A stretch of 59,819 nt of DNA from an uncultured Deferribacteres bacterium (GTDB lineage: Bacteria; Zhuqueibacterota; JdFR-76; BMS3Abin05), in the NCBI GenBank assembly GCA_964568545.1, contig CAZMRE010000002.1, positions 1-59,819 of the forward strand, written 5' to 3'. The position numbers and the translations under genes are program-made. The notes below the pieces were generated by a model that had not been told where the DNA came from, searched no databases, and saw only the letters and a list, made by a program, of their open reading frames with translations. Positions within the stretch are counted from its first letter, which is position 1; the number at the start of each line of letters is the position of its first letter. Of this stretch, positions 37,648 to 57,134 are shown piece after piece.

Positions 37648-38712
37648 ATGAAAAAAGCAAGTATTAGTCATGTTGCAGAGCGGGCGGGCGTATCGAAAGC
37701 CACGGTTTCACTTGTTCTGAATAACAAGGATAGTGGAATTCGAATTAGTGAGAAGACCCGTCTCAAAGTTTTGAAAGCCGCAAAGGATTTAAATTACCAT
37801 CCCAATTATGGTGCCCGGTTGCTCTCTACCGGCAAATCCTGCGTGATCGGCGTACTGACGCTCAACGAAAATGCTCTTTTCCTCAGTGATTATGACGGCC
37901 GAATTATGAAGGGGATTTCCGCTGTGACCCATGAATCGGGCTACCATATTATGATTCTGGATGAAGAAATTATCAGCAAAAAATCAGCCTCTTTTGGTGG
38001 AAATCTAATTACTGGAAGTTTTTTGGACGGTTTGCTGGTTTTTTCTCCTGATGCAAAAAATCAGCGTTTGACGGAAATTGTGGATACGCTTTCCGATTCA
38101 AAAATTCCCTTTGTTTATATTTGGAGAAAAGGGGCAAATCGGCCGGCTTCGGTGGTAATGGTGAATAATGTGAAGGCAGCTGAGGTTGGAACGGAGTATC
38201 TGATTTCCCTGGGGCATCGGCGCATTGGCTTTATTTCCTTGGGAAAAAATTCCCTCTCCGGCAGAGAAAGACTAAGCGGATACATGCGCGCTCTCAGTAA
38301 AAATCACATTCCTATTGATGAGGAATTGATCAGGCACGATATTTTTCGAAGTTTTGCCCCTGAAAAAATGTCGGATGAAAGTCGTATTTTTGATTTAATG
38401 GATCATCCCGATCCCCCAACAGCCCTTTTTGTGGTGTTTGATCCGCTTGCCATTAGCGTGATGAGGGTGCTTCAGAACAAAGGAATTTCCGTACCGGGAG
38501 ACGTGTCCGTGCTGGGATTTGGAAATGTGATGATGTCTGCCTATTCCAACCCGGCACTTTCAACAATGAATGAGCCTCTGGAAGAATTTGGTCAGCATGC
38601 GGCGCAAATGCTGGTGGAACAGATTGAAAACGAAGAAAAGCAAGCCCCTGTTAAAGAAGTGGTGCTTGATTCAGAATTGATTGTTCGGGAATCCTGTCGA
38701 GCGATTGCCTAA
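37648..38712 (+). CDS. LacI family transcriptional regulator
   Basis: N-terminal HTH ISHVAERAGVSKATVSLVLNNK plus a periplasmic-binding-protein-like sugar-binding core. Confidence 0.9.
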   Translation: MKKASISHVAERAGVSKATVSLVLNNKDSGIRISEKTRLKVLKAAKDLNYHPNYGARLLSTGKSCVIGVLTLNENALFLSDYDGRIMKGISAVTHESGYHIMILDEEIISKKSASFGGNLITGSFLDGLLVFSPDAKNQRLTEIVDTLSDSKIPFVYIWRKGANRPASVVMVNNVKAAEVGTEYLISLGHRRIGFISLGKNSLSGRERLSGYMRALSKNHIPIDEELIRHDIFRSFAPEKMSDESRIFDLMDHPDPPTALFVVFDPLAISVMRVLQNKGISVPGDVSVLGFGNVMMSAYSNPALSTMNEPLEEFGQHAAQMLVEQIENEEKQAPVKEVVLDSELIVRESCRAIA

Positions 38713-38881: not shown

Positions 38882-41800
38882 ATGATGTTCTTTCGGCACA
38901 AATGGCATCTTGCAAAATTCTTTTTTGCTGTTTTTGGAATAAGCTGGGTGGAAGCGTCTGGTTTTTATCCTGCATTTGCGGGAGTTGAAATTATTCGCTC
39001 CAGCGAGAGGCAGTTTGTTTTTCGATATCATCCGACCATCGTGGAAAAACATGTTATGACAGATCAGGGAAAGACACAAACTATTTTAACATTACCTGGC
39101 GGGCAGAAAGAGGTGCTCCAAAAGGGGCTTTTGCTGCCATGCAAACGTTTTTTGGTTGGCATCCCGCCGAATGGCAATGTGTCCCTTCGGGTGGTAAGAT
39201 CGCAATTTTCTCTTAAGAAAGATGTTTTTGTGGAAAAAGGCAAACTTCCGAAAGATGGGAACGAGCACCTTCAAGAGAAAAATTTCGGGCCGATCCCCGT
39301 TCGGCCAGAAACATACACTTCCCGCGTTTTTTACCCGGCTTCAATTGCGCAAGTAACGGAGGTGGGCCACCTTAGGAATCTAAAAATTGCTCAGATTACC
39401 ATTTACCCGATTCAATACAAATTTTCTACTCACACGGCGAGGATTTGTTCTTCCGTACAAATTTCCATGCAGTTTTCCTCTCACACAGTCAGCGACAGAA
39501 AGAGAAATCCGGTTTCCACACCCTTTAGGCAGATTGCTCGATCCCTTTTGCTCAATGGAAAGCAGGCGCAGAACTGGGGCGAAAAACAGATGGTTTTCTC
39601 TAAAACGAAGAGAACTGACTCGTATCGGTACTGGTTCAAGATTCCAATTTTCAGGGAGGGTATGTACAAAATCGGGTACGCGGATTTAAAAAAAACCGGA
39701 TTGGATTCCAGCCAGATTTCGGCCGATCAGCTTCACATCTTTTACGGCGGCGGCAGGGAACTCCCCTGGGATGTGAACGCCCCGGAGCCGCAGCTTCAGG
39801 AAGTGGCTACCTATTTTAAGGATGCCAATCACGATGGGCATTTTGGGAAGCAGGACGAATTAATTTTTTACGGGCAATCCGTAAACGGCTGGGCGTTTTC
39901 GATAATGGACAAACGTTTTCGTCACTACATTAATCACTACGCACGCTGGAATGTGTACTGGCTGGCCATTGGGGGAGATTCGCGCAAACAGATGGCACGG
40001 ATTACAGAAATACCCGCTCAAGCGGAGACCACTCGCACTGCCTGGCGCTATTTTTACAAAGAAGTGGAAAAACTCAATCCTGAAAAATCAGGCATCCAGT
40101 GGTACTGGGATGAATTCTCCGGGAATGAAACCCGAAAATACCCGCTCCTTCTAAGCGGTGTATCTGCTTCAGATTCTTTTGCCTACCGAATTCACTTGAT
40201 CGGGGCATCCTTCAATCACCACAATCTCAAAATTGCATTGAACGGAGAGCCTCTGGCCGATATCGATTTGCCCTACGAGCGTTCGCTGGTGGTTTCGGGG
40301 GGAAGAGCAAGCGGGCTGAAAAACGGCGGCAATATGCTGTCGATTCAGCAGAAATCGACTCTTGGAAGAAAGGACAAATGTCTTCTGGACTGGGTTGAAT
40401 TGAATTACCGAAGCACGCTTCGCGCGGATTCAACCGGATTGGTCTTTTACGCTCCGCTGAGAAACAAAGATGTGACATTTGCACTTTCCGGATTCCAGGC
40501 GGATAGCGTGACCATTTTCGACGTAAGTGACCCATTCAATGTGCGCTACTCTGAAGCTAAAAAAAATTCCCAAAATCCGGGCGAGTGGCTTTTTAGTGAT
40601 CACCTTTCTTTAATCAATCAAAAAAAATATTTTGCCGTTGCGCTTGATCAAATGATTTCTGTAAAAGAAGTGTATCGCGCGGCGAGTCCGGTAAGCGGTT
40701 TGCGGGATGTTCAGAATCGAGCGGATTATTTGATTATTGCTCACGAAAGCCTATTGGGTGCCGATTTGTCCCGTTTGGCATCGCACCGTGCTGACCCGGC
40801 GTTTTGGCCCGGGGGAAAAGACGCGCCCGTTGTGAAAATTGTTCCCGTAAATCAGATTTACAACGCTTTTTCGTGGGGAATCCCGGATCCCACGGCGATT
40901 CGCAATTTTCTGAAATACACCTTTTCTCACTGGACAAAAGCACCGTCGTACGTTCTCTTGGTTGGAAATGCTTGTTACGACATGAAGCAAAATTCGAGTG
41001 CCAGCCCCCCCACGTTGGTGCCTACACACGAAGACGAACTGCGTGTAACCGACGACTGGTTTGCTTTTTTGAACAATGACCGGATTATGGACATGCTGAT
41101 TGGCCGGTTGTCCGTTCAGAATCAGGAAGACCTCCACAATGTGGTGGAAAAAATAATTGAATACGATACGCAGCTTCCACCAGCCCCGTGGCAGGGACGC
41201 GTTCTTCTGGTGGCAGATGACGCTAATTCCCCGACTTACAAGAGTGAGGATATTGCGTTTGGACGAGATACGGAATCGCTTTCGCGGGATTCTGTTTTTT
41301 CAGATTTGTCCATTGAAAAGGTGTACTTGGATGCCTATTCCCAAGATGCTTCGGGAAGAAAGGAAGAAGCAAAACGAGATTTTCTGGCCCAATTGAACAA
41401 GGGAACCGTCTTTGTGAATTTTCTGGGGCACGCAAATCTGGAAGTGTTGACGCACGAAAACATTTTTTACACGCCTCAAGATTTGCCCCTGGTTCAAAAT
41501 GGGCGTCGCTACCCCCTGTTTTTTGCCGGAACCTGCGCTGTGGGGCAGTTTGACTACGATCGCAAACCCTGCATGGCGGAATATCTGACCAATTTGCCCG
41601 AACGTGGAATGATTGCCGCCATTGCTTCTACCCGTTGGACATGGCACAAACTCAATTACGGTGTGAATAAATCCTTTGTGAAAACGCTATTTGACCCTAA
41701 AAATCGGGGCAGGCTTTCCATTGGGGAAGCACTTCTGGCAGCGAAATTGACGTCACGCTACGCAGATCATCGTGAGTTGATTACACTTTTTGGTGATCCG

Positions 41801-42880
41801 GCTTTGCGTCTGGCGTTGCCAACCCGAAATGTGGGCTTGCGAGTTTTACCGGACACGCTTTCACTGCACAAAAGAACCCAGATAATGGCGTCGGTTTCGA
41901 ACAGCCGCATCAAACCGAAAAATTTTAATGGGGAGATTTTTCTGGAATTGCGGGATTCAGGGCAAATACACCACCCAGCGGGTTACAGCTATTTTTTGCC
42001 TGGAGAGATTATTTTTCAGGACACGCTTTTTTCGGAAGATGGAACGGTGCAGGATGATTTTTTTCCAAAAACGATTACATTGTCCGGCGGAAAACTGGGT
42101 CGGCTTTACAGCTTTGCTTGGAACAGAAAGCTTCGGGCTGCCGGTCGACTGGATTCCATTCCAATAAAAAGGGATGTGATTCACTCCTTTTCGGAGATTG
42201 ATTCCACAGGCCCTGAGATTGAAGTTTCCGTGAATCAAAAAAGGATTGAGGATGGAGCGGAAATAACGGTTTTTCCTCATTTTCGGTGTCGGTTCAAACT
42301 GCGGGATACCGTGAGTGGAATTTTGGTTACTAAACCGGAAAACTTCCCGGTGCAGTTTACTGTCAATGGCGATACCACGCTAACGCGCAACCTCACGTCA
42401 CAGCTCATCTGCACGGATTCCACTCGGAGCAACGCAACTGCTGAGATTGACTGTCGGAATTTGCCCCTCGGGGAACAGACGTTTGAGATTACGGCCTGGG
42501 ATCAAGCCTACAATCCTTCCCATTTTGAATGGAAAGGGATGGTGGTTCCGTCAGAATTAAAATTGACCCATGTACTGACTTACCCTAACCCTGCCAGCGA
42601 AAGAACCTATTTTACATTTGATTTGTCTGGTTCGGCGCAGGTAACGGTTAAAATTTATACGCTCTCAGGCCGTTTGATCCAAATGTTTGAGGCTGAGGCT
42701 CAACCGGGTTTCAACCGGATTCCCGGCGAGGGTTGGAATTGTCGCGATCGGGATGGCGATCCGCTGGCCAATGGCGTGTATCTGTACAAAATTGTTGCTC
42801 GCTCGGAATTTTCGGTGTTTCAGACAGGAGCAAAAAAACAATATGCAAGCGCTCTGGGACGTCTGGCTATTTTTAGGTAA
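38882..42880 (+). CDS. peptidase C25 family protein with C-terminal T9SS sorting domain; PorU-like (candidate T9SS C-terminal signal peptidase)
   Basis: Signal peptide. YRYWFKIPIFREGMYKIGYADLKKTGL...IFYGGGRELP pattern seen in PorU/gingipain-type proteins. Catalytic-type His (VNFLGHANLE) and Cys (FFAGTCAVGQFD). C-terminal LTYPNPASERTYFTF...VTVKIYTLSGRLI...NGVYLYKIVA domain (about 42584-42880). The PorU assignment rests on size, architecture and the nearby PorV/PorQ-like gene. Confidence 0.75.
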   Translation: MMFFRHKWHLAKFFFAVFGISWVEASGFYPAFAGVEIIRSSERQFVFRYHPTIVEKHVMTDQGKTQTILTLPGGQKEVLQKGLLLPCKRFLVGIPPNGNVSLRVVRSQFSLKKDVFVEKGKLPKDGNEHLQEKNFGPIPVRPETYTSRVFYPASIAQVTEVGHLRNLKIAQITIYPIQYKFSTHTARICSSVQISMQFSSHTVSDRKRNPVSTPFRQIARSLLLNGKQAQNWGEKQMVFSKTKRTDSYRYWFKIPIFREGMYKIGYADLKKTGLDSSQISADQLHIFYGGGRELPWDVNAPEPQLQEVATYFKDANHDGHFGKQDELIFYGQSVNGWAFSIMDKRFRHYINHYARWNVYWLAIGGDSRKQMARITEIPAQAETTRTAWRYFYKEVEKLNPEKSGIQWYWDEFSGNETRKYPLLLSGVSASDSFAYRIHLIGASFNHHNLKIALNGEPLADIDLPYERSLVVSGGRASGLKNGGNMLSIQQKSTLGRKDKCLLDWVELNYRSTLRADSTGLVFYAPLRNKDVTFALSGFQADSVTIFDVSDPFNVRYSEAKKNSQNPGEWLFSDHLSLINQKKYFAVALDQMISVKEVYRAASPVSGLRDVQNRADYLIIAHESLLGADLSRLASHRADPAFWPGGKDAPVVKIVPVNQIYNAFSWGIPDPTAIRNFLKYTFSHWTKAPSYVLLVGNACYDMKQNSSASPPTLVPTHEDELRVTDDWFAFLNNDRIMDMLIGRLSVQNQEDLHNVVEKIIEYDTQLPPAPWQGRVLLVADDANSPTYKSEDIAFGRDTESLSRDSVFSDLSIEKVYLDAYSQDASGRKEEAKRDFLAQLNKGTVFVNFLGHANLEVLTHENIFYTPQDLPLVQNGRRYPLFFAGTCAVGQFDYDRKPCMAEYLTNLPERGMIAAIASTRWTWHKLNYGVNKSFVKTLFDPKNRGRLSIGEALLAAKLTSRYADHRELITLFGDPALRLALPTRNVGLRVLPDTLSLHKRTQIMASVSNSRIKPKNFNGEIFLELRDSGQIHHPAGYSYFLPGEIIFQDTLFSEDGTVQDDFFPKTITLSGGKLGRLYSFAWNRKLRAAGRLDSIPIKRDVIHSFSEIDSTGPEIEVSVNQKRIEDGAEITVFPHFRCRFKLRDTVSGILVTKPENFPVQFTVNGDTTLTRNLTSQLICTDSTRSNATAEIDCRNLPLGEQTFEITAWDQAYNPSHFEWKGMVVPSELKLTHVLTYPNPASERTYFTFDLSGSAQVTVKIYTLSGRLIQMFEAEAQPGFNRIPGEGWNCRDRDGDPLANGVYLYKIVARSEFSVFQTGAKKQYASALGRLAIFR

Positions 42881-42948
42881 GGAAATAAATTAATGCGTAC
42901 AAATTCATAAATCAAATCTTTTCATACTTAAACTGAAAGGAAAAGCCG

Positions 42949-45900
42949 ATGAAACGGGTGTTCGCTAAAATTGTATTGGCTCTACTTTTCACAATGGGAA
43001 TGCTTCCCCATCTGGCCATTTCCGGCAGTACAGGAAAAATTGTAGGACATGTTGTCGATGCCAAGACCGGAAGTCCCCTGCCCGGTGTAAATGTGATGCT
43101 TGTGGGTACTCGGATGGGAGCGGCTACAGACGCCAACGGTGATTATTTCATCATTAATATTCCCCCGGGAAATTACTCGGTGAAAGCATCGATGATTGGC
43201 TATCAGATTCTTGAAAAGACCGGCGTGATGGTAGAAATTGACCGGACGGTTCGGGTGAATTTTAAATTGAGCCAGTCCGTAATTTCAGGAAAGCCGGTGG
43301 TGGTTACGGCCAAAAAGGAAATTGTTCCAATGGATGTGTCGGCCAGCCAGATTACCATTCAAGGTGAAAAAACGCAGTTAATGCCTGTTAACACGATTCA
43401 AGATGCCATTCGTTTAACGCCCGGCATTTACATTGACGATCAAACAAATTTCATCACCGTGCGAGGCGGCGGAGGCGATCAGGTACTGGTTTTGGTCGAT
43501 GGGGTTTCAATGACCGATAATCTGTTTAACCGGCCGTTTCTTTCAATGAATCGCTCTGCCATTGAGCAGGTTTCCATTCAGACGGGTGGATTTAACGCTG
43601 AATACGGAAACCTGCGTTCTGGTTTGTTTAACATTGTTACTAAAGAGGGCGGCAATCGCTACAATCTGAGTTTGGATTACAAATATCGATTTCCATCATT
43701 AAAATACGAAGGCCCCAAATTATTTACTCCGGGATATAAAGATAACCTGATGTATGGCAGCGATGTTTCCATGGATTCCAGTAGACTACGGCAAATGTTC
43801 CCAAATCCGGAGGATTATTTCATGGGCTGGGTTGCTTTTTCGGAAAACAAAATGATGGATAGCGATTCGTCCAACGATCTTTCTCCTAATCAGCGCCGGC
43901 AATTATGGCTCTGGCGCCACCGGGGATTTCCGCACGGCAACAAACCAGATCATTACCTGGATGCCACGCTGACCGGTCCAATTCCAGGTCGTTCCATTCC
44001 GATTTGGGGCAGTTTTGCCAGACGCACCACATTTCTACTGTCGCATCGCTTTAACAATGTCAAATATGCAGAACCAGCCGTTCGGGATCATTTCTTTGAT
44101 CGGAACTCAATTGTCAAATTGACGACGCACATTACCCCGTCTATGAAGTTGACCCTTTCCGGGATGTTTGCTAAGGAATGGGGAATGGCCAAAGCCGACC
44201 CCCATTATCCTAATGGTCTATTTATCTACCATACCGGTATGGGAAAACGATACGGCGGATGTGAGAATCCTGTGGGGGATTTGACCACGAACATGTTGGA
44301 TATTAATTTTACGCACACGCTTAGCCCGCGAACATTTTATGTAGTGCGGTTGTCTCGCATGCAAACTCACTATCACATTACTCACGGACCCGACCGGGAT
44401 ACCACCAAGATAAAATATATTCCGGCAGATTGGTACACCGTGCAGGGCGACACCCTCAATGTCCCCGGTTATTGGGATTCCAAAACCGGACACTATGTGC
44501 TTCACGACACCACTTTCTACAAGGGTGACAGGGTGTGGTTCCCCGCATCTTCCTACGATGAAACGCCGCACGGCTGGATTATTGGAGGCCAGACGTTTAA
44601 TGACCAGCCCGGAAAGGTTAATCTGGATAATACCAGTATCGATTTTGATTCCTCCAAGGGTTGGACTACCATCTTTAAATTCGATTTAACCAGTCAGGTG
44701 AACAAATATCATCAGATTAAAACCGGACTTTATATGGATATGAGCCGGCTGGATCGGGCGTATCGTGAATTAACCTTCCAGCGAAAAAAACGATTGAGCT
44801 TTTCCTCTCCCCCAAGAAAAGCTGCTGTTTATGTTCAGGACAGGATTGAAGTAAAAGGAATGATTGCCAATGTTGGCCTTCGAGCCGAATACTTTGACGC
44901 CCACGGCAAGGTCTACGAACCGGGGAATCCCTTTTCGCGTGCTTTTGGTCCGGGGTTCTGGGATCGAATTGACGGCGATAGTCTGAAATACGGTCTTAGT
45001 GAGAAGCACTTTTTTATCAGTCCGCGAATAGGAATTTCACATCCAATGACGGCAAACAGCAAGATTTACTTCAACTACGGGCATTTTTATTCGCCTCCAT
45101 TGACATTTCACCTGTACGGTTTTTATAATCGAAGCGATTATGAGTCACAGGCAGAGTTTATCGGAAATCCCAATTTAAAGCCTCCGCGAACGATTGCCTA
45201 TGAACTTGGATTTGATATGGATTTGCATCGAATGTTTCTGATTCACACGGATGTTTTTTACAAGGACGTGACTAATGAAGAAGGAGCTATTTACTACACG
45301 AGTATTGATAAAATAACCAATTACAAAACATGGACCAACAAAAAATATGAGGATATCATCGGATGGGAACTGCGTATCAACAAACGGGTCGGACGGTTCT
45401 TTACCGGTTGGATCCAAACTCAATTTATGGGACAACGGGCCGGTGAGGTTGGCTACCAGCACTTATATGAGCCAGATGATCCCCTCAATGTACCGACCTA
45501 TTCGCGCTTTTCCGTTCCTATTAGCCGACTATGGCGTTGGAAGCCCAGTTTTCAGGGCTATGTAGATGTGCATTCCCCCGAAAATTGGGGGCCTCGTGTT
45601 TTCAAACATTGCATTTTTGCAGGATTTCATGTGAATACCATTATCCATTGGGCAGCCGGTGATAAGTTTACGTGGAACCCGGACAATAAGCCCTTTATCC
45701 GTGACAATCTCCAATGGAAAAATTATTTCCGATCGGATATTTACATGAGCAAGAATTTTACCGTGGGTCGGGTCAACATCAGTCCTTACCTCGATATGCG
45801 AAATCTTTTTGCCCGCAAGATGCTAAATGTGGGAGTTCTGCGAGGCTTAGCTGTTAATCCCGGATCGGAAATTTACAGATACTATGCTTCTCTTAAAAAA

Positions 45901-46029
45901 GGAGATCGCGTAGGCGATTATAAACAATCGTACATTAAATACCCTCACTATAAACCAGGAGAGCCGCTTTACATTCACCAGGGAGGCCCAAAAGAGGTTT
46001 ATATGGGTATTCATATTGAGTTAAAATGA
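42949..46029 (+). CDS. TonB-dependent-receptor-like outer membrane barrel with N-terminal carboxypeptidase-regulatory-like domain
   Basis: Signal peptide. GKIVGHVVDAKTGSPLPGVNVMLVGTRMGAATDANGDYFIINIPPGNYSV (CarboxypepD_reg). Plug motifs VRGGGGDQVLVLVDGVSM and GGFNAEYGNLRSGLFNIVTKEG, followed by about 750 aa of aromatic-rich barrel. It ends in ...HIELK with no terminal aromatic residue. Confidence 0.8.
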   Translation: MKRVFAKIVLALLFTMGMLPHLAISGSTGKIVGHVVDAKTGSPLPGVNVMLVGTRMGAATDANGDYFIINIPPGNYSVKASMIGYQILEKTGVMVEIDRTVRVNFKLSQSVISGKPVVVTAKKEIVPMDVSASQITIQGEKTQLMPVNTIQDAIRLTPGIYIDDQTNFITVRGGGGDQVLVLVDGVSMTDNLFNRPFLSMNRSAIEQVSIQTGGFNAEYGNLRSGLFNIVTKEGGNRYNLSLDYKYRFPSLKYEGPKLFTPGYKDNLMYGSDVSMDSSRLRQMFPNPEDYFMGWVAFSENKMMDSDSSNDLSPNQRRQLWLWRHRGFPHGNKPDHYLDATLTGPIPGRSIPIWGSFARRTTFLLSHRFNNVKYAEPAVRDHFFDRNSIVKLTTHITPSMKLTLSGMFAKEWGMAKADPHYPNGLFIYHTGMGKRYGGCENPVGDLTTNMLDINFTHTLSPRTFYVVRLSRMQTHYHITHGPDRDTTKIKYIPADWYTVQGDTLNVPGYWDSKTGHYVLHDTTFYKGDRVWFPASSYDETPHGWIIGGQTFNDQPGKVNLDNTSIDFDSSKGWTTIFKFDLTSQVNKYHQIKTGLYMDMSRLDRAYRELTFQRKKRLSFSSPPRKAAVYVQDRIEVKGMIANVGLRAEYFDAHGKVYEPGNPFSRAFGPGFWDRIDGDSLKYGLSEKHFFISPRIGISHPMTANSKIYFNYGHFYSPPLTFHLYGFYNRSDYESQAEFIGNPNLKPPRTIAYELGFDMDLHRMFLIHTDVFYKDVTNEEGAIYYTSIDKITNYKTWTNKKYEDIIGWELRINKRVGRFFTGWIQTQFMGQRAGEVGYQHLYEPDDPLNVPTYSRFSVPISRLWRWKPSFQGYVDVHSPENWGPRVFKHCIFAGFHVNTIIHWAAGDKFTWNPDNKPFIRDNLQWKNYFRSDIYMSKNFTVGRVNISPYLDMRNLFARKMLNVGVLRGLAVNPGSEIYRYYASLKKGDRVGDYKQSYIKYPHYKPGEPLYIHQGGPKEVYMGIHIELK

Positions 46030-46133
46030 ACCTTCCATGGCAAGATTGTGCTGCGCAATTCAAAGGAAAGTTATCGTATGTAAAAATACTCGTTCTTTCA
46101 ATAATCAGTGAATCCTTTAGTCGGAGAGTTCTT

Positions 46134-47129
46134 ATGACAATCAAAAAATATTTCATGACAATGGTTTTGGCCCTTTTGATAATGACGTCACTGGCTTTCG
46201 GACAAAGCATTAAGAAAGTAGCCCAAAGCTACATGCCGTTTTTGAGTCTTGAGGTGGGAGCCAGAGCCCAGGCACTTTCGGGTGCATTTATCGCAGTACC
46301 GGGTGATCCGAACAATATCTTTTACAATCCGTCGGGGTTGGCGTACGTCAGAGGGATCAGCTTTTCGCTTTCCCGAACCAATTGGTTTGCTGGTATTGGT
46401 TACGAGGGGGGAGCACTCGCGATGCATTTTGGCGATTGGGGAACATTCGGATTAAGCGTCATAAATATGGATTATGGAACATTTCACCGGACAGAAGTGG
46501 ATGCGCACGCCTGGGAAGGATATACCGAACACGGCACGTTTTCTGTAAGTGAATGGGCCATTGGATTAGCGTATGCCAAACAATTAACCGATCGATTTTC
46601 CTTTGGCGGGCAGGCAAAATATGCTTACCAGGACCTGGGAAGCAGCAGGATCTGGCAGTATTGGGGGACGCAATTTGAGTATTCGGCCAATGTCAAAAAT
46701 GAACAAAAAACAATGGCCTACGATCTGGGCACCTATTATCATACGGGATTTAAAAGCCTGCAAATCGGAATGTACATCAGGAACTTTGCCAATCGACCAC
46801 TTCCCCTAACATTTGGTTTCGGAATGGCCATGTACCTGAATGATCTCTTTTTATCTGAAAATTCGCCTCATCGATTTTTGCTGACCACCGATTTTCTTCA
46901 CCCGAAAGATTATTCCGAACGTTTTAATGTGGGATTGGAATATTCCTTTTACAAAAAAGCTTTTTTGCGATTTGGCTATCGCGGAAATTATGATGAAGAA
47001 AAAATGACATTTGGAGCTGGATATGATCAGCAAATCGGGAATATGAGTTTCGCAATTGATTATACGGCCATTCCGTTTGGCGTATTTGGCTGGGTCCATC
47101 AAATTAGTTTTGGCATGAATTGGCGATAA
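46134..47129 (+). CDS. PorV/PorQ-family outer membrane beta-barrel protein
   Basis: ATG 46134 with GGAGAG RBS and signal peptide MTIKKYFMTMVLALLIMTSLAFGQ. SYMPFLSLEVGARAQALSGAFIAVPGDPNNIFYNPSGLAYV matches the conserved N-terminal block of PorV/PorQ-type proteins. Assigned from memory of the family. Confidence 0.65.
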   Translation: MTIKKYFMTMVLALLIMTSLAFGQSIKKVAQSYMPFLSLEVGARAQALSGAFIAVPGDPNNIFYNPSGLAYVRGISFSLSRTNWFAGIGYEGGALAMHFGDWGTFGLSVINMDYGTFHRTEVDAHAWEGYTEHGTFSVSEWAIGLAYAKQLTDRFSFGGQAKYAYQDLGSSRIWQYWGTQFEYSANVKNEQKTMAYDLGTYYHTGFKSLQIGMYIRNFANRPLPLTFGFGMAMYLNDLFLSENSPHRFLLTTDFLHPKDYSERFNVGLEYSFYKKAFLRFGYRGNYDEEKMTFGAGYDQQIGNMSFAIDYTAIPFGVFGWVHQISFGMNWR

Positions 47130-47205: not shown

Positions 47206-49353
47206 ATGAATCGAAAAACGGCCTTTGCATTTTTGATCATTGGATTATTTGTGCTGTCTTTCAATCCAATAAATTCGTACAGCCAAAAGCCAACCCGTTT
47301 TTTGGCTCTTGGTGAATTCTGGCATTATGAGGAGAATGATTTCAGCGGAGGTTGGGAAAGCTCCTGGGTTTGGCCGGGCAACCGCTGGCGGGAAAAAAAC
47401 CCTGGGGAAATCCGTCTGATGGGTCCCAATGCCCGATTGGCTGGGCCGGGACTTGGCGTAAAGGATTGGAAAGACCGACGAAAACGCTTCCATCCGTACT
47501 ACATCTGTTCTTCCAATGCGGGGGAATATCTGCACACGTCCGACGCTTCCTCGGAGCCTTATGGTACGTTTGAAAAAGTATTGCGTGTGCGTCCCCCAGA
47601 TGTATACGTGGACGGCAAATTACAGGGCGCTCGGCATCCCTACGACCGGATCGATCCAACCCTTCCGGTGGACGGCATTATTCACGGGAAGGTTAATTTT
47701 CCTATCGGTGTGACAGCAGACATGACCTGGTATTCCAGCGCCGCCAAGAACGCCGATATGTACATGATTTTGGATGTGACTCTCACTAACTCCGGCAACA
47801 CCAATGCCACGCCCAGAATTGAATTAAGAAACCAAACTCTCCATGGGCTCTGCTGGGCCTACATGCCGGAACCCATGGTTTCCTTTGAAGGGGCTACACA
47901 GAACGCGGCTATCTGGGAAGGAAATAACGATGATTGGGTGGAATATTACGGTGAGAATTACCTGGACTATCTCGGTTCGGGTGATCCGCTGCACCCAGCG
48001 GGTGACCCCACGGCAGATTCCCTGCGTTTGTGGATATTGTGGGATGGGGATAACAACCTGCTTCCCGGTGATGATGTAGGAGACCCCGACCGCAATGTGG
48101 GTTTCGTGGAACAAACACCGGGGCATGGGTATCTTTTTTCGCCGCAATATGTGGGGTGGGGAATTCTCCACGCCGACAAGAGTGTAGATGATAAAACCAA
48201 CGATTTGTCCCAGCCATTCTCCACGGTTTGGCGTCCTGGGACAGTACGCTGGGGCGAAAGTGATTATGACAAGTTGTATCAATTTCTGTTCAGTGGCAAT
48301 CACATGAAGAGTCCGCAGGAAATGGGCTACACCGAGCCCAACGATCCCGAGCATGTGGCTGCTCCCTATGCCTACCTAGGAGTGGGGCCCTATGAGATGC
48401 CATTTGGGAGCAGTGTTCACATTACGATGCTGGTGGTGATTAACGGGCTTTCTCGGGAGAATTGTAGGAAAGTGGGACTGGAGTGGTACAACGCTCATCA
48501 CGGCGGCGAGGGTTTGACCGATGAAGAGAAGGATGCCATTGTGGCGACGGGCAGGGATTCTTTAATGAAATATTACAGTATGGCTTACCGGCGATATTTT
48601 CGGAACATTGCCGAAGGACGGAATCCCTTTGCAGTGCCCAAACCCCCACCGGCGCCGGATTTGTGGGTGGAAGCCGGGAACAAGTGTGTGAAGCTTCATT
48701 GGAGTGATGTGTCCAAAGTTCCGGATCCTGACACCGGTGTGCCTGATTTTGCCGGATATCGAGTGTACCGGTCTCACAGTACGGGACAGCAGGGATTTAG
48801 TGGCAACGAGGGTCCCTACGATCTGATCTGGGAGTGCGGGGGGAAGAGCGGCAATCCGGTGGATACGAGTTTTGTTGATCGCAGTGTTCAGAGAGGGTTT
48901 GCTTACTGGTACTATGTGACAGCCTACGATGACGGGAGTCAGAACTGGGAGGATGGAAAGCCGCTGGAGTCGGGCAAGTACTGGAATATGATGCAGAAGA
49001 ACATGCCGGTTCATCCCTACTACAAGCCGGAGCAGGTAAAAACACTGGACAAGGTGCGGGTGGTACCCAATCCTTACAATTACGCCTCGCGTCCGATGAA
49101 TTTTCCGGATGAGGAGAATAAGATTATGTTTGTGGGATTGCCGCCGAAGTGTACGATTAAGATTTTCACGGTGACAGGGAATCTGGTGAAGACGCTTCAT
49201 CACACAAATGGAACCGGTGAGGAGCCCTGGGATCAATTGACGGAATACAACCAAATTGTGTATTCGGGGGTGTACATCTATGTGATTCAAAGTGACATCG
49301 GTACCACAACTGGAAAGTTTGTGATTGTGCGTGAAGGGGAACAGGTTCAATAA
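47206..49353 (+). CDS. secreted protein of unknown function, paralog A: novel ~470-aa N-domain + FN3 + T9SS-type C-terminal domain
   Basis: Signal peptide. FN3-like PPAPDLWVEAGNKCVKLHWSDV...FAGYRVYRS...FAYWYYVTAYDDG. CTD VRVVPNPYNY...CTIKIFTVTGNLVKTL...SGVYIYVIQ...GKFVIVR (about 49054-49353). ATG 47206 is preferred over TTG 47200. Confidence 0.85.
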   Translation: MNRKTAFAFLIIGLFVLSFNPINSYSQKPTRFLALGEFWHYEENDFSGGWESSWVWPGNRWREKNPGEIRLMGPNARLAGPGLGVKDWKDRRKRFHPYYICSSNAGEYLHTSDASSEPYGTFEKVLRVRPPDVYVDGKLQGARHPYDRIDPTLPVDGIIHGKVNFPIGVTADMTWYSSAAKNADMYMILDVTLTNSGNTNATPRIELRNQTLHGLCWAYMPEPMVSFEGATQNAAIWEGNNDDWVEYYGENYLDYLGSGDPLHPAGDPTADSLRLWILWDGDNNLLPGDDVGDPDRNVGFVEQTPGHGYLFSPQYVGWGILHADKSVDDKTNDLSQPFSTVWRPGTVRWGESDYDKLYQFLFSGNHMKSPQEMGYTEPNDPEHVAAPYAYLGVGPYEMPFGSSVHITMLVVINGLSRENCRKVGLEWYNAHHGGEGLTDEEKDAIVATGRDSLMKYYSMAYRRYFRNIAEGRNPFAVPKPPPAPDLWVEAGNKCVKLHWSDVSKVPDPDTGVPDFAGYRVYRSHSTGQQGFSGNEGPYDLIWECGGKSGNPVDTSFVDRSVQRGFAYWYYVTAYDDGSQNWEDGKPLESGKYWNMMQKNMPVHPYYKPEQVKTLDKVRVVPNPYNYASRPMNFPDEENKIMFVGLPPKCTIKIFTVTGNLVKTLHHTNGTGEEPWDQLTEYNQIVYSGVYIYVIQSDIGTTTGKFVIVREGEQVQ
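47605..47780 (+). repeat. near-identical block 1 shared by the paralogs (partner 49811-49986)
   Basis: 176 nt with a single mismatch (CGG versus CGC), read directly from both copies. Confidence 0.9.
48937..49230 (+). repeat. near-identical block 2 shared by the paralogs (partner 51143-51436)
   Basis: 294 nt with a single mismatch, of which 268 nt (48937-49204 versus 51143-51410) are perfectly identical. It spans the FN3 end, the linker and the first half of the CTD. Confidence 0.9.
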
Positions 49354-49411: not shown

Positions 49412-51559
49412 ATGTGGAAAGCTGGGAAAATAGGCATCATTTTTTTGGCGATCGCCGCTTTTGGCCTGAATCCTCGGAATACAGTGGCGCAAAAACCGGT
49501 TCGCTACCTGGCTCTGGGAGAGTTCTGGCACTACGAAGAGGATGATTTCAGCGGGGGCTGGGAAACCTCCTGGATCTGGCCCGGCAACCGCTGGCGCGAA
49601 AGAATTCCTGGCGAAATTAAATGTATGGGAACAAACGCTCGCTTGGTGGGCCCTGGCTTCGGTGTAAAGAACTGGAAAGATCGGCGGAAACGCTTTCACC
49701 CATATTATATTTGCTCGTCCAATGCCGGTGAATATCTGCATACTTCTGACGCTTCTTCCGAACCGTACCAGATTTTTGAAAAGGTTTTGCGCGTGCGCCC
49801 CCCAGATGTCTACGTGGACGGCAAATTACAGGGCGCTCGCCATCCCTACGACCGGATCGATCCAACCCTTCCGGTGGACGGCATTATTCACGGGAAGGTT
49901 AATTTTCCTATCGGTGTGACAGCAGACATGACCTGGTATTCCAGCGCCGCCAAGAACGCCGATATGTACATGATTTTGGATGTGACATTGACAAATACGG
50001 GAAATACAAACAGTACGCCGAAAATTGAGTTGCCAAACCAGACGCTGCATGGCCTTTGTTGGGCCTACATGCCCGAGCCTTGCGTGACCTACGAAGGGGC
50101 CAATCAAAACAAGGCAGTGTGGGAAAATAACAATGACGACTGGGTGGAATATTACGGCGAAAATTATGCGGATTACATTGGCTCGGGTGATCCCCTCCAT
50201 CCTGCCGGTGATCCTAATGCCGATTCACTTCGCCTCTGGATCATGTGGGACGGTGACAATAATTTGCTTCCCGGGGATGACGTAGGAGATCCCGATCGCA
50301 ATGTGGGGTATGTGGAACCGACTTCAGGGCACGGCCGGATCCTTTCCCCGGCTTATGTGGGCTGGGGAATTTTGCACGCGGACAAAAGCGTGGATGACGA
50401 GACCAATGACTTGTCCCAGCCGTTTTCCACCGTCTGGCGTCCGGGGACAGTGCGTTGGGGCGAAACCGACTACGACAAGCTCTATCAGTTTCTATTCAGC
50501 GGCGATCACATGAAAAGCCCTCAGGAAATGGGATACACCGAGCCCAATGATCCGGAGCATGTATCGGCACCCTACGCTTACCTGGGGGTGGGACCCTATG
50601 AAATGCCTTTTGGAAGTGACGTGCACATTACGATGCTGGTGGTGATCAATGGATTGTCTCGGGAGAATTGCCGGAAAGTTGGCCTGGAATGGTACAATGC
50701 CCAACACGGAGGCGAGGGACTGACAGATGAAGAAAAGGATGCCCTGGTGGCTACCGGGCGGGATTCGCTGATGAAATATTACAGCATGGCTTATCGCCGG
50801 TACTTTCGGAACATTGCCGAAGGACGGAACCCCTTTGCGGTGCCCAAACCCCCACCGGCACCGGATTTGTGGGTGGAGGCGGGCAACAGGTGCGTAAAAT
50901 TGCACTGGAGTGATGTGTCCAAAGTTCCGGATCCCGATACCGGTGTGCCCGATTTTGCCGGATATCGAGTGTACCGCTCGCACAGCACCAATCTGGCTGG
51001 AGAAAGTGGAAATGAAGGCCCTTATGATCTCATCTATGAAAGTCGGCCAACGGATGGGCACCCCGCGGACACCAGTTTTGTGGATTACGGGGTACAGCGC
51101 GGTTTTGCCTATTGGTATTACGTGACGGCCTTCGATGATGGAAGTCAGAACTGGGAGGATGGAAAGCCGCTGGAGTCGGGCAAGTACTGGAATATGATGC
51201 AGAAGAACATGCCGGTTCATCCCTACTACAAGCCGGAGCAGGTAAAAACACTGGACAAGGTGCGGGTGGTACCCAATCCTTACAATTACGCCTCGCGTCC
51301 GATGAATTTTCCGGATGAGGAGAATAAGATTATGTTTGTGGGATTGCCGCCGAAGTGTACGATTAAGATTTTCACGGTGACAGGGAATCTGGTGAAGACG
51401 CTTCATCACATAAATGGAACCGGTGAGGAGCCCTGGAATCAGCTCACAGAATACAATCAAATTGTATATTCGGGGGTTTATATTTTTACGATTGAGAGCA
51501 ATATTGGAACCGCAACTGGTAAATTCGTCATCGTTAGAAGCGGAGAGGAGGTGAGGTAA
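49412..51559 (+). CDS. secreted protein of unknown function, paralog B (roughly 90 percent identical to paralog A by eye)
   Basis: Same architecture as 47206..49353. CTD at about 51260-51559. Confidence 0.85.
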   Translation: MWKAGKIGIIFLAIAAFGLNPRNTVAQKPVRYLALGEFWHYEEDDFSGGWETSWIWPGNRWRERIPGEIKCMGTNARLVGPGFGVKNWKDRRKRFHPYYICSSNAGEYLHTSDASSEPYQIFEKVLRVRPPDVYVDGKLQGARHPYDRIDPTLPVDGIIHGKVNFPIGVTADMTWYSSAAKNADMYMILDVTLTNTGNTNSTPKIELPNQTLHGLCWAYMPEPCVTYEGANQNKAVWENNNDDWVEYYGENYADYIGSGDPLHPAGDPNADSLRLWIMWDGDNNLLPGDDVGDPDRNVGYVEPTSGHGRILSPAYVGWGILHADKSVDDETNDLSQPFSTVWRPGTVRWGETDYDKLYQFLFSGDHMKSPQEMGYTEPNDPEHVSAPYAYLGVGPYEMPFGSDVHITMLVVINGLSRENCRKVGLEWYNAQHGGEGLTDEEKDALVATGRDSLMKYYSMAYRRYFRNIAEGRNPFAVPKPPPAPDLWVEAGNRCVKLHWSDVSKVPDPDTGVPDFAGYRVYRSHSTNLAGESGNEGPYDLIYESRPTDGHPADTSFVDYGVQRGFAYWYYVTAFDDGSQNWEDGKPLESGKYWNMMQKNMPVHPYYKPEQVKTLDKVRVVPNPYNYASRPMNFPDEENKIMFVGLPPKCTIKIFTVTGNLVKTLHHINGTGEEPWNQLTEYNQIVYSGVYIFTIESNIGTATGKFVIVRSGEEVR

Positions 51560-51675
51560 CACAAAGGGAAAAAACAATCAAACCAAATGAAAGGAGGTGA
51601 TTATTCAAGGATGTTCATTGGGGGAAATCGTAAAAAAATGAAAAAACAATGAACGAACCTTTAAGGAGGGTTACG

Positions 51676-52878
51676 ATGAAACGATTCGTAGTTTTATTAG
51701 CCACCATTGCAATGGCCGTGTTTATGGTATCCAATAGTTTTGCCGGAAACAAGGCTCTAAAAAAGGCCAGTGGTGTAACAGAAATCAAATTGTACACGAA
51801 TGAGAACCCACCTCGGTTTTGGGGTTATGATTCGGTAGGTACAAATCATGCAGCCAATTACCTGGGACAAAAAAAATCATATCCCCATGCCAGCAGTTTG
51901 GTTGTTCGATTTGGAATGAACAATGACATCGTGAATGGCGATACGTGTAATATCTATGTAAGCCATGATGCTGCTATTGGTCCTTACGCCTATTGGCTCC
52001 ATTTTGTTGGTATGCCCAACCCGAGAAATTGGGTGGATATCTATCGTTCCGATACCGAAGGCTATGATCAATATCTGGATGCATCCCACACCCAGCGCGT
52101 GACTTTCTGGATTAAAGCCGACCCCAAATTGGCAGATACATACCCGCTGTTCTTCGTCTGGAGAAGCCAGGAAGTAAATGGCCACGATGCATTCAGTGCC
52201 ATCGCCTGCATCAGGGGAGAAACCATCGTGCGGATTGATCCTTATGGTGATTGGAATGTCGTCCGTTTTCACAAATTCAGTGGAGATTGGCAGTTTGTAT
52301 CTATTCCGTGGACGTTCTTCACCATTCCAACGGCTGATTCTGTACAGGCCATTATCCCGTATAGCTGGGCGGGCGTCCAAACCGATGGAAAATCCTATGG
52401 TCCCGATTTCGATCCGTCAACAATTCGTGTGTACCAATTGGACACCAGAATCGGCGGTGAACCTGACAAAGGAAATTTCCCCTGGCCGGATAGCGGAACA
52501 CCCGAAGGTACTGGAGATTATGGAATTGATGAAATGATTCTGACCCTGAACCCAGGAACAGGCGTCAGTGGGGTGAATGGCGAAAAGACCACCGTTCCGT
52601 TGACCTACGAACTGAAAGATGCCTATCCCAATCCATTCAATCCCAGCACGACCATTGAGTACGGGCTTCCTGTAAGCAATACCGTGAAAATCGTGGTGTA
52701 CAATTCAATGGGACAGAAAGTGAAAACACTGGTTAACAGCTACCAGACACTGGGCACTTACAAAGTGACATGGGACGGCACCAATGATTTTGGCGAAACT
52801 GTTCCAAGCGGCGTTTACTTTTGCAAGATGACGTCCAGCCATTTCAGCGCTGTGAAAAAACTAATGCTGATGAAGTAA
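51676..52878 (+). CDS. secreted beta-sandwich (carbohydrate-binding-module-like) protein with T9SS-type C-terminal domain
   Basis: AAGGAGGG RBS and signal peptide MKRFVVLLATIAMAVFMVSNSFA. WQFVSIPWTFFT...FDPSTIRVYQLD...GDYGIDEMILT resembles CBM11/CIA30-type modules (inference). CTD YPNPFNPSTTIEYGLPVSNTVKIVVYNSMGQKV...SGVYFCKM (about 52605-52878). Confidence 0.8.
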   Translation: MKRFVVLLATIAMAVFMVSNSFAGNKALKKASGVTEIKLYTNENPPRFWGYDSVGTNHAANYLGQKKSYPHASSLVVRFGMNNDIVNGDTCNIYVSHDAAIGPYAYWLHFVGMPNPRNWVDIYRSDTEGYDQYLDASHTQRVTFWIKADPKLADTYPLFFVWRSQEVNGHDAFSAIACIRGETIVRIDPYGDWNVVRFHKFSGDWQFVSIPWTFFTIPTADSVQAIIPYSWAGVQTDGKSYGPDFDPSTIRVYQLDTRIGGEPDKGNFPWPDSGTPEGTGDYGIDEMILTLNPGTGVSGVNGEKTTVPLTYELKDAYPNPFNPSTTIEYGLPVSNTVKIVVYNSMGQKVKTLVNSYQTLGTYKVTWDGTNDFGETVPSGVYFCKMTSSHFSAVKKLMLMK

Positions 52879-56100: not shown

Positions 56101-56877
56101 GCCTTCGGCGGACATTCCCCGGTGGAAAAAACCATTCCGGCTCTGGCAGACCTGGACGGAGATGGGAAACTGGAAACTCTGATTGCTGGACGAGACAGCC
56201 TGCTCTGGGCTCTGGATTTTCAGGGAAAACCCCTTTGGAAGGTGGCGCTGATCGGGCGACTGGACTACGGCCCCGCCGTGGGCGATCTGGACGGCGATGG
56301 GCAGAAAGAGGTCGTGCTGAACAGCCGTCACGGGGGAGAAAAAGCAAAGGTGTACGCCATCAGCGCAAAGGGAAAAATCCTTTGGTCAGTACCCTGCGAT
56401 GCCTACGGGGACTGGTCGGTTTCGTTGGCGGACGTGACAGGCGACGGCAAGTTGGAAGTGGTGGCCAACGACACGACGCCCGCGCTGAATGTGATTAATT
56501 ACTGCGGGAAGGTGGTGCGCCGGATTCCGCTGCAAAGCTGGAACACGATGACCCCGGCAATCACAGATTTGACGGGAGACGGGAAACCCGATTTTGTGGT
56601 GGCCGGAAACGAGGAGCGCAAGGTGCACGTTCTGGACAATTCCGGGAAGGTGTTGTGGAGCTTTCAGCCTCCCAGCTTTGGCTACGGCGGGGCGAAAGTA
56701 AAGGGCGGCGGCAATGTGGCCATCGCGGATGTAGACGGCGACGGCAAATTGGACATCCTGTTTGGCGATGATGAGAGCTGGTTTTACGACCTTCGCACCC
56801 AGGCCGTGTGCAAACCCTTTGAAATTCGCGTGAACCAGTACCACAACAACGTGGCCCATACGGGGGTGTTTAAATAA
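53104..56877 (+). CDS. 1257-aa secreted protein: helical (alpha/alpha-toroid-like) N-terminal region + 8 FG-GAP/VCBS-type propeller repeats
   Basis: GAGG RBS and a hydrophobic signal-like segment MIFALFIWIFLLGEAQG (an alternative start is ATG 53176). Eight repeats of the form (V/L)(G/A)D(L/V)(D/N/T)GDGKxE(V/I) between about 55680 and 56780, alternating with xGKxLW strands. No T9SS-type C-terminal domain. Confidence 0.8.
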   Translation: MSVRFSSNRPPKACLHDGLVQKAKMIFALFIWIFLLGEAQGRTFPASASALPPVPHDYAGGADYQSYLTYSKTFADTFLRAAVDHWGPKKTPLFVQMLALKTHDIPKKSDDPRWQMDYAGADYVYASQGSDLSRETYMLPALIELTEITGNPKYKQAALAYLRFYFKHCPSPTTGLWPWGEHMSYNVVADRIHHWREEPEMSPAPWELFWQIDSSAVRKEIEGFYKYHTYDKKNTFLFDRHGNYYTGLFDDMRVRGAYIKHSGIYLYGFTFLWTKTHNPKYLKWMKKEADLFWNRRNPRTGLIPDEAKETEGVVAQTATLTYYLLLSYQLAPDQTYLLKRAAFYMRHFLRAAYNPENGSYFGGVHLRTGTPATASHFSVWGTNSPAAYLGKTVALLYKNTGDPFFLWHARQIARMIENTPFSENTCAGAMGQVIHFFLDLYDLTGDGAYLRFSRKVASTAIDSLYNNGLFKYTFRSYIYNAGGPNDGDHTGHLFKMLLRLYKMEKGVPLHWQAPAIWHEWKRPVPVRVMGNTPLKGLRLVYIFGHDPAEHVLKPQRQSGKTAFFDIPLEPKKEGLLRFHFRLKKDRQHETDSANWAGMAQVQVVRQHAVPVISDVHFPRVVPDVTRIPLSFRVVCPAGIKQASLFYRRMREPVREQMVTKPLISGQQVMMSIPPKNSCFTGWTDFWLQAWGDPAFPRRSQTKHFRVIASQKAEQELLADPKKWQSLDFSALGVQMEVKSTRRTPISVEKIPGAPVTFTKGLPGKAAAFYRFRTGRKVWLPQASRAKILVASRWLERFVGPTLQFYHAQKRHWVPVSSRLSEDQKQLTANLPDSGLYAVSGLPRQVWRWPASDALLVSPAVGDLDGDGKLEVIFASRDFGHFMTALHADGTEYWTIEKDGGFSFPVLADLDGDGRPEVIVGDMDGYLYVFNGDGSLKWRYFANSGVKTPAVGDLNGDGKPEIVFGLKNGDVVAISNTGKKIWQTSTVPPAKRNAITLANQAFGGHSPVEKTIPALADLDGDGKLETLIAGRDSLLWALDFQGKPLWKVALIGRLDYGPAVGDLDGDGQKEVVLNSRHGGEKAKVYAISAKGKILWSVPCDAYGDWSVSLADVTGDGKLEVVANDTTPALNVINYCGKVVRRIPLQSWNTMTPAITDLTGDGKPDFVVAGNEERKVHVLDNSGKVLWSFQPPSFGYGGAKVKGGGNVAIADVDGDGKLDILFGDDESWFYDLRTQAVCKPFEIRVNQYHNNVAHTGVFK

Positions 56878-57020: not shown

Positions 57021-57134
57021 AAAATATGACATGCGAAGAAGACCGGAAGGATCATCATCGACTTGAGCCGTGGGCAGCGTCGCCCCGGGAAGATGAATTC
57101 GTTAGTAATCTGTTACCAAATTAGAAAAGGCACA

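Follow-up and report, generated by a model that had tools for sequence, protein, structure and literature searches.

We describe a gene cassette in a 59,819-nucleotide stretch of DNA from an uncultured Deferribacteres bacterium (the window, by which we mean the whole stretch analyzed). The cassette encodes a TonB-dependent transporter (T), an outer-membrane barrel of the PorV/PorQ family (V), which we call PorVL, and a secreted surface protein (P) that ends in a type IX secretion system (T9SS) C-terminal domain (CTD). We are highly confident that T, V and P form an evolutionarily conserved cassette that recurs in bacteria of the Fibrobacteres-Chlorobi-Bacteroidetes (FCB) group outside the Bacteroidota. 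The families involved (PorU, TonB-dependent transporter, PorV/PorQ and type A-like CTD) are all known, and their combination is unlike each of the known systems compared here. In the window, the cassette lies on the + strand directly downstream of a gene for the T9SS sortase PorU (38882-42880), and comprises the transporter (42949-46029), PorVL (46134-47129) and two P genes, p717 (47206-49353) and its tandem paralogue p715 (49412-51559). The original prediction correctly recognized the first three genes as PorU, a transporter and a PorV/PorQ-like barrel, but it read them as a receptor inserted between porU and porV and overlooked the third obligate cassette member, the CTD proteins of approximately 715 amino acids encoded just downstream of the region it covered. 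Judged by profile scores, PorU adjoins a self-contained cassette whose barrel belongs to another PorV/PorQ subfamily.

Linkage of the transporter, barrel and partner genes

Cassette loci (given L numbers below) were collected from two starting points, the neighborhoods of transporter homologues and a scan of metagenome contigs with an alignment of cassette barrels. Seven independent transporter neighborhoods, in which transporter identity to the window ranges from 92% to 33%, all hold T, V and P. L001, from a Calditrichaeota metagenome-assembled genome (MAG; transporter 92% identical), has the same gene order as the window. L005 (47%) has the order PorU, LacI, nucleotidyltransferase, T, V, P, P, P, and L002 (44%), from a Deferribacteres-labelled MAG, has T, V, P with no PorU within 10 kb. 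The order is T, P, V in L003 (41%), where the part of the contig covered holds no PorU, and also in L007 (34%), from Marinimicrobia. L006 (33%), a 1.27-Mb metagenome contig, has T, P, V, TIG, T, P, and L008 (33%), from Ignavibacteriales, has V, T, P. By blastp, every neighbor of approximately 700 amino acids in these loci is homologous to p717 and every neighbor of approximately 330 amino acids is homologous to the barrel.

The barrel-seeded scan gave 80 PorVL loci with 26-52% PorVL identity. A homologous transporter and a CTD-bearing partner are present in all 33 of those that include at least 6.5 kb upstream of PorVL. The gene order in these loci is most often TPV (24 loci), followed by TPPV and TVP (two each) and TVPP, TVPPP, VTP, TPPVTP and PTPVPP (one each). 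Even among the 47 truncated loci, 36 still contain another cassette gene. The family is sizeable, with 161 clusters (50% identity) at E ≤ 1e-30 and 1576 at E ≤ 1e-10. It could be argued that the three genes merely sit together in a carbohydrate locus without functioning together, as operon-like clustering of outer-membrane genes is common. Nothing specific favors this explanation, and a linkage of 33 in 33 that persists across 26-52% PorVL identity and through rearranged orders had already told against it; we consider it barely credible.

The cassette also recurs independently of PorU. In Ignavibacteria, Marinimicrobia, KSB1 and most metagenome loci, the transporter and barrel occur as a pair with no PorU, which lies within 9 kb of PorVL in only two of the 80 loci (L090 and L091), both with the arrangement seen in the clade to which the window PorU belongs. 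These observations do not support the suggestion that the receptor works with the T9SS attachment machinery. No description of the cassette was found in the literature, including the Melioribacter and Caldithrix genome papers, although coverage was incomplete and this is absence of evidence only. Two side observations concern the loci themselves. In KSB1, Marinimicrobia and Ignavibacteria loci, the cassette is often followed by a TIG-domain protein of approximately 400 amino acids. In addition, contigs with FCB-type T9SS and cassette genes carry the labels Deferribacteres, Actinomycetota, Cytophagia, Alphaproteobacteria and even Methanosarcinaceae (for example, L009, L010, L012 and L086).

The transporter (1026 amino acids) is, as modelled, a complete TonB-dependent transporter with a TonB-box-like motif. 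It consists, in order, of a signal peptide, a CarboxypepD_reg domain (residues 31-108), the motif VVVTA (residues 116-120), a plug and a barrel. The CarboxypepD_reg domain, plug and barrel region had been recognized previously, and Pfam matches bear them out (CarboxypepD_reg, 71 bits; Plug PF07715, 48.6 bits against a cutoff of 23.9; OMP_b-brl_3, 50 bits). In a Foldseek search, the AlphaFold2 (AF2) model (mean predicted local distance difference test score [pLDDT] 85.6) matched PqqU, FusA, FrpB, FepA and BtuB with E values of 1e-26 to 1e-21 and target-normalized template modelling (TM) scores of 0.6-0.78, and classical TonB-dependent transporters ranked ahead of SusC-like ones. VVVTA adopts a short strand located after the N-terminal domain and before the plug, and a TonB-box-like motif occurs in 103 of 120 transporter homologues under a loose search pattern. 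On the SusC/RagA model TIGR04056, the transporter scores 60.6 bits against a cutoff of 368, with a match confined to the N-terminal 180 residues; by this measure it is outside the SusC/RagA family. In agreement with the earlier observation that no SusD-like gene follows the receptor, none of the 36 window open reading frames (ORFs) scanned matched a SusD-family Pfam model. The receptor does end in IELK, without a terminal aromatic residue, as had been pointed out. Close relatives end in IELR, NFDFGK or NFTR and 85 of 120 family members end in F, so the ending is a quirk of the subclade and we rejected the idea that it marks an odd barrel.

The PorVL barrel and the neighboring sortase

The mechanically called ORF of the barrel (46026-47129) encodes 367 amino acids. 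All homologues and their gene calls begin at a matching signal peptide, and we therefore place the start at the ATG at 46134, which gives a protein of 331 amino acids. Its assignment to the PorV/PorQ family, made originally for a protein of 332 amino acids, holds: the family model NF033709 gives it 160.7 bits (cutoff 90) and is matched over positions 3-326 of 326. Within the family, it is neither PorV nor PorQ by its model scores. The PorV equivalog NF033710 gives 51.1 bits against a cutoff of 250, with a match to the N-terminal half only, the PorQ equivalog NF033711 gives 79 bits against 220, PorV2 (NF052325) gives 58.9 bits against 325, and the PorP/SprF model TIGR03519 gives no match. The sole significant sequence match in the PDB is PorV (6h3i_F, E 8e-11). 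Cassette barrels as a group score 51-78 bits on NF033710, compared to 174-552 bits for PorVs encoded next to PorU.

Two hidden Markov models (HMMs) of our own, one for PorVL and one for canonical PorV, separate the two groups in the same way. The window barrel scores 538 bits on the PorVL model and 89 on the canonical model. The canonical model gives 258-535 bits for canonical PorVs and 80-113 for cassette barrels, and the PorVL model gives 37-110 and 408-538, respectively. We thus assign the window barrel to PorVL, a subfamily of the PorV/PorQ family distinct from both PorV and PorQ. A practical consequence for annotation is that a PorV/PorQ-family match beside porU need not be porV.

The PorU encoded upstream (1332 amino acids) is a bona fide T9SS sortase and not a core part of the cassette. 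It scores 575.7 bits on the T9SS sortase PorU model NF033707 (cutoff 420) and is below threshold on the PorU2 model (198.9 against 450). It matches Pfam Peptidase_C25 with 278.6 bits, as well as Propeptide_C25, and carries a CTD of its own (residues 1234-1306; 29.3 bits on the type A model TIGR04183, cutoff 23). The motifs GHA (H850) and GTC (C885) are unchanged in an alignment with three relatives of 37-52% identity, and we take H850 and C885 to be the catalytic dyad from knowledge of the family. The downstream neighbor of this gene is the transporter, not porV.

To place this arrangement among other PorU loci, we consider 80 that were collected by a genome scan with a PorU alignment, seeded by two peptide motifs and drawing mostly on incomplete MAGs. 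A canonical PorV directly follows PorU, within 200 nt, in 63 of the 80 and is present but not adjacent in one. Five loci, all from the window clade, have cassette genes and no canonical PorV, nine have neither, and in two the contig ends just after PorU. In a neighbor-joining tree, the window PorU falls in a distinct clade with those of L001, L005 and L009-L014, and the sister sequence, from L015, keeps PorV directly after PorU. L090, L091 and L169 were added to this clade on the basis of PorU similarity and gene arrangement. A cassette gene is present in the same locus in 11 of the 12 clade loci, in several arrangements. PorU directly precedes T in the window, L001 and L009; it precedes LacI, which in turn precedes T, in L005, L010, L012, L090 and L091; it lies two ORFs before T in L014; and it follows P in L013 and L169. 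The triplet of C25 sortase, receptor and PorV-like gene thus recurs in the same order in L001 and L009, yet it is not a fixed unit, as the position of PorU varies within the clade. The tie between PorU and the cassette is specific to this Calditrichota-type clade. A linkage that survives rearrangement suggests some selective tie, for example co-regulation or processing of the ordinary CTD cargo encoded in the locus. As a side observation, a CTP_transf_3/NTP_transf_3-like nucleotidyltransferase of approximately 250 amino acids lies between LacI and T in L005 (5755-6510), L010 and L012.

One interpretation of the window arrangement is that a transporter was inserted into a porU-porV pair, that the barrel is the PorV of this organism and that the transporter serves the T9SS attachment complex. 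The order PorU, transporter, barrel in the window, L001 and L009 is consistent with this, as is the lack of a canonical PorV in the 59.8-kb window and in every window-clade locus. So is the failure to find a genome with a second PorU locus among the 80 in the motif-seeded scan, most of whose records are incomplete; a word-indexed PorU search returned only 32 matches, with no cultured Calditrichota among them. However, the barrel reaches only 51 of the 250 bits that the PorV equivalog requires, it groups with other cassette barrels, whose source genomes have relatives with canonical PorU-PorV pairs, and nearly all loci show the transporter and barrel linked in the absence of PorU. Within the clade itself, PorU stands upstream of the cassette, beyond LacI or downstream of P (L013, L169), and no fixed unit of PorU, T and V exists. 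We regard an insertion of this kind as highly improbable, and the original prediction of a receptor between porU and porV is likewise not supported, as by its scores the barrel is not a PorV orthologue.

PorU diverges unusually fast here, much faster than the cassette. PorU in the window (38882-42880) is only 52-59% identical to PorU in L001 (5753-9754) and L009 (10001-13999). Comparison of the window with L001 gives identities of 92% for the transporter, 93% for PorVL and 92-95% for T, V and P overall, against 52% for PorU. This disparity raised the suspicion of a recent horizontal transfer of the cassette, which we ruled out because the cassette is only 76-82% identical in DNA, against approximately 68% for porU. 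The DNA values therefore point to stronger purifying selection, or differential constraint, on the cassette and not to a recent mosaic.

Partner proteins and a proposed mechanism of glycan capture

The partner proteins p717 and p715 are 88% identical by blastp and have no Pfam domain in their bodies. In relatives, P occurs in one to three tandem copies, with three in L005 and L090. p717 begins with a type I signal peptide that lacks a lipobox. The AF2 model of p717 (pLDDT 87.4, predicted TM score 0.84) comprises a beta-supersandwich at residues 30-415 (approximate), three helices, an FN3 domain (486-574) and the CTD (640-707). Foldseek detected a weak likeness of the N-terminal sandwich to the corresponding N-terminal domains of GH94, GH65 and GH15-type enzymes, gave matches to FN3 domains and matched the CTD to those of PorZ (5m11) and RgpB; a sequence search against the PDB matched nothing beyond the CTD. 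With its large beta-sandwich, FN3 domain, CTD and type I signal peptide, the modelled P looks like a binding protein.

The CTD sets the partners apart. On TIGR04183 (cutoff 23), p717 and p715 score 25.2 and 24.0 bits, and the CTD of p717 additionally aligns with the C-terminal end of the PorZ model (28 bits). Partners in distant cassettes range from 700 to 1590 amino acids and have only the FN3 region and the last 100 or so residues in common with p717. An HMM of the cassette CTD, trained only on 30 such distant partners, whose PorVLs are at most 34% identical to that of the window, gives 102 bits for p717 and 99 bits for p715. In contrast, p409, an ordinary T9SS cargo protein encoded in the same locus, scores 23 bits, and all 114 other C-terminal matches from PorU and transporter loci score at most 41 bits, with a median of 18. 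The best-scoring CTDs from outside the cassette are those of PorU. On these scores, P carries a cassette-specific CTD subtype. That the N-terminal part of the partners is variable and their special CTD constant points to recognition of the CTD.

We infer that P (p717 and p715) would be exported by the T9SS and that its cassette CTD would be captured and retained by the co-encoded PorVL, by analogy with the pairs PorU-PorV and PorZ-PorQ and with type B CTDs and PorP/SprF. A glycan-binding P would thereby be tethered at the cell surface beside the transporter, which would import the oligosaccharides. P would occupy the role of SusD and the surface glycan-binding lipoproteins in the polysaccharide utilization loci (PULs) of Bacteroidota, with PorVL in place of the lipid anchor, and PorU would probably process the ordinary CTD cargo of the locus (p409 and enzymes). 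We put the probability that this mechanism of anchoring and glycan capture is right at about even. What the analysis shows are the identities of the genes, the linkage within the cassette, the separateness of PorVL, the CTD subtype and the restriction of the PorU linkage to one clade; the binding of the CTD by PorVL, the tethering, the glycan binding and the substrate are inferred. It had been suggested earlier that the PorV-like barrel substitutes for SusD as the partner of the receptor. The partnership fits the strict linkage of the genes (33 in 33), but a SusD-like role suits the CTD proteins of approximately 715 amino acids better; because the barrel is an integral membrane protein, it is likelier to be their anchor than a substitute for SusD.

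There are precedents for a barrel that holds a surface protein by its CTD. In Porphyromonas gingivalis, PorV and PorQ are the proposed surface anchors of PorU and PorZ, respectively (PMC5562754). The cassette resembles this system in that a barrel of the PorV/PorQ family is encoded with a CTD-bearing surface protein whose CTD is nearer those of PorZ and PorU than those of cargo. It differs in that PorVL fails the PorV and PorQ equivalogs, in that the partner is not a sortase or a carrier of anionic lipopolysaccharide (A-LPS) but a variable beta-sandwich and FN3 protein, and in that the pair comes linked with a TonB-dependent transporter and exists in many copies and variants. Similarly, type B CTD proteins bind PorP/SprF-like barrels, as in the pairs PorP-PG1035 and SprF-SprB (PMC9143113). 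There too, a dedicated outer-membrane barrel, the proposed surface anchor, is encoded beside its cognate CTD protein, but the cassette barrel is of the PorV/PorQ family, the CTD is type A-like, and the coupling is to nutrient uptake rather than motility. Compared to the canonical locus of porU, porV and an M6-like inactivated metalloprotease, the window locus has a PorU of the same family that, in its clade, has lost that neighborhood and sits in a cassette locus.

SusC/SusD pairs are the means by which Bacteroidota take up glycans. To our knowledge, many abundant FCB lineages degrade polysaccharides without an obvious SusD. The cassette loci share with SusC/SusD PULs a TonB-dependent transporter with a CarboxypepD_reg-like extension, near surface proteins, a regulator and polysaccharide enzymes, and the presumed logic, surface capture followed by TonB-driven import, is the same. 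Unlike those PULs, the window locus lacks SusD, its transporter is outside SusC/RagA, the partner is not a lipoprotein but a T9SS-CTD protein bearing a type I signal peptide, and a PorV-like barrel is obligatory. We tentatively propose, while judging it slightly improbable, that the cassette is an undescribed SusD-free PUL module of Calditrichota, KSB1, Marinimicrobia, Ignavibacteria and relatives, in which a glycan-binding protein, exported by the T9SS, is docked non-covalently on PorVL by a private CTD beside the transporter. If so, it would explain surface capture and import in FCB lineages without an obvious SusD, and the pairing of T9SS CTDs with barrels would be a general, modular route to surface complexes beyond the PorU-PorV/PorZ-PorQ attachment complex. 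The role of PorV-family barrels would widen from core secretion machinery to cargo-specific anchoring. The cassette could also serve as an annotation marker for PUL-like loci in these phyla, where its parts are presently labelled "TonB-dependent receptor", "PorV/PorQ family protein" and "T9SS type A sorting domain-containing protein".

Alternatively, PorVL may be a dedicated shuttle that carries cassette CTD proteins from the translocon to PorU, where the CTD would be cleaved and the protein linked to lipopolysaccharide, so that the tethering would be covalent and binding to PorVL transient. A shuttle function with binding of CTD substrates is documented for PorV (PMC5562754), the p717 CTD is above the type A cutoff, and PorU is found in the same locus, in several positions, in 11 of the 12 window-clade loci. 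Against a shuttle, PorU is near the cassette in just two of the 80 PorVL loci, none of them outside the window clade. Moreover, the cassette CTD is sharply distinct, and its nearest relatives outside the cassette are the retained CTDs of PorU and PorZ. This CTD subtype is also missing from the ordinary cargo of these loci, such as p409, although that cargo presumably uses the general PorV. We consider a shuttle rather unlikely.

A second alternative is that PorVL acts independently of the T9SS, as a FadL-like substrate channel or as a partner of the transporter barrel in its structure or biogenesis, and that its link to the CTD protein is indirect. PorV-family proteins are homologues of FadL, and the linkage of transporter and PorVL is strict. 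There is also a precedent in BamF, a 14-stranded FadL-like barrel of the Bacteroidetes β-barrel assembly machinery (BAM), which acts as a membrane platform, packs on another barrel, BamA, and binds and holds surface proteins by its loops (bioRxiv 10.1101/2025.01.31.636011). BamF thus sets a FadL-family precedent for holding surface proteins beside a second barrel, but it belongs to the BAM machine, its partners are lipoproteins and no CTD is involved, and PorVL is likened to it only at the level of the FadL-like superfamily. A T9SS-independent role leaves the constancy of the special CTD, which is always present despite the variable N-terminal part of the partner, without a place, and pectin-type substrates are unlike the hydrophobic ligands of FadL channels. 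In addition, a single PorVL can accompany two sets of transporter and partner, as in L006 (326-14395; T-P-V-TIG-T-P-TIG) and L106 (1244-15250; T-P-P-V-T-P), and recognition of the CTD therefore fits better than a fixed one-to-one dock on the transporter. We regard this alternative as improbable.

Several points weigh against anchoring and glycan capture or against the comparisons behind it. The cassette CTD subtype is still above the cutoff of TIGR04183, the generic type A model; PorU could therefore cleave it as it does the CTDs of other cargo, and PorVL would then be a shuttle and not an anchor. The retention of PorU with the cassette in 11 of 12 clade loci hints at a closer coupling to the sortase than anchoring needs. 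The likeness of the p717 sandwich to GH-type domains has query-normalized TM scores of 0.2-0.25, so glycan binding is a guess, and an enzymatic role of p717 is conceivable. The canonical-PorV HMM classified its own training sequences, for which the NCBIfam scores are an independent check, and one LacI sequence contaminated its training set. Finally, the loci were gathered by motif-seeded scans and come from uncultured MAGs, whose taxonomic labels are unreliable.

The probable polysaccharide locus and other observations

The genes around the cassette are consistent with a polysaccharide locus. Upstream of PorU, on the + strand, is a LacI-family gene (37648-38712; Pfam LacI and Peripla_BP_3), the likely regulator of the locus, and a LacI gene also stands alongside the cassette in L001, L003, L005, L009, L010, L012 and L169. 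Downstream of p715, also on the + strand, are p409 (51649-52878), with an ordinary type A CTD (Por_Secre_tail, 31.7 bits; TIGR04183, 37.7 bits) and a FlgD_ig match, and p1257 (53104-56877), a putative pectin- or rhamnogalacturonan-active protein with Pfam Pectate_lyase_2 and FG-GAP/RGL11-like matches. Homologues of p409 are kept in the loci of L001, L002, L003, L005 and L013, and the homologue of p1257 that follows the cassette in L001 is 85% identical. Across the loci, a PUL-like set of pectate lyase, GH106, GH95 and PcRGLX occurs with LacI and CTD proteins; the pectate lyase/RGL11-like protein is that of the window, and relatives have GH106, GH95, PcRGLX and PL22. Because the locus is LacI-linked, encodes T9SS-CTD proteins and a pectate-lyase/FG-GAP protein, and has relatives with these enzymes, its substrate is probably pectin or rhamnogalacturonan, under LacI control.

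Spacing within the locus is less tight than had been described: gaps of 68 nt between PorU and the transporter and 104 nt between the transporter and the barrel are moderate. No terminator-like site was found in the intergenic gaps of the + strand, in a promoter and terminator scan whose results overall were not above shuffled expectation and are thus uninformative. At the end of the locus, an 846-amino acid ORF (57063-59603) without a Pfam or NCBIfam match may be a further uncharacterized component or enzyme.

The remainder of the window consists of housekeeping genes. Among its other ORFs, two of approximately 390 amino acids without a Pfam match (23817-25019 and 25186-26340) precede a gene for a bacterial archaeo-eukaryotic release-factor-like protein (26680-27828; baeRF family 10 and eRF1 domain 3).

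Other PorU loci show further variation. The canonical order of the Ignavibacteria type is PorU, PorV and a "T9SS-dependent M6-like inactivated metalloprotease" (NF052323, 1177 bits in L019). In L019 (13947-21251), and also in L015 and L020-L051, the metalloprotease is followed by a protein of approximately 1020 amino acids with TolB-like propeller and HExxH-like matches, and this looks like a conserved, extended attachment locus in genomes of the Ignavibacteria/Melioribacteraceae type. Unusually long PorV-matching ORFs lie directly after PorU in L018 (13865-16339) and L066 (13934-16408), with 824 amino acids each, and in L032 (11619-14759), with 1046 amino acids; these ORFs may encode PorV fused to a further domain. 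In L036 (5691-13891), L056 (4982-13606) and L070 (9482-16700), a single PorV is preceded by PorU genes in tandem or in duplicate.

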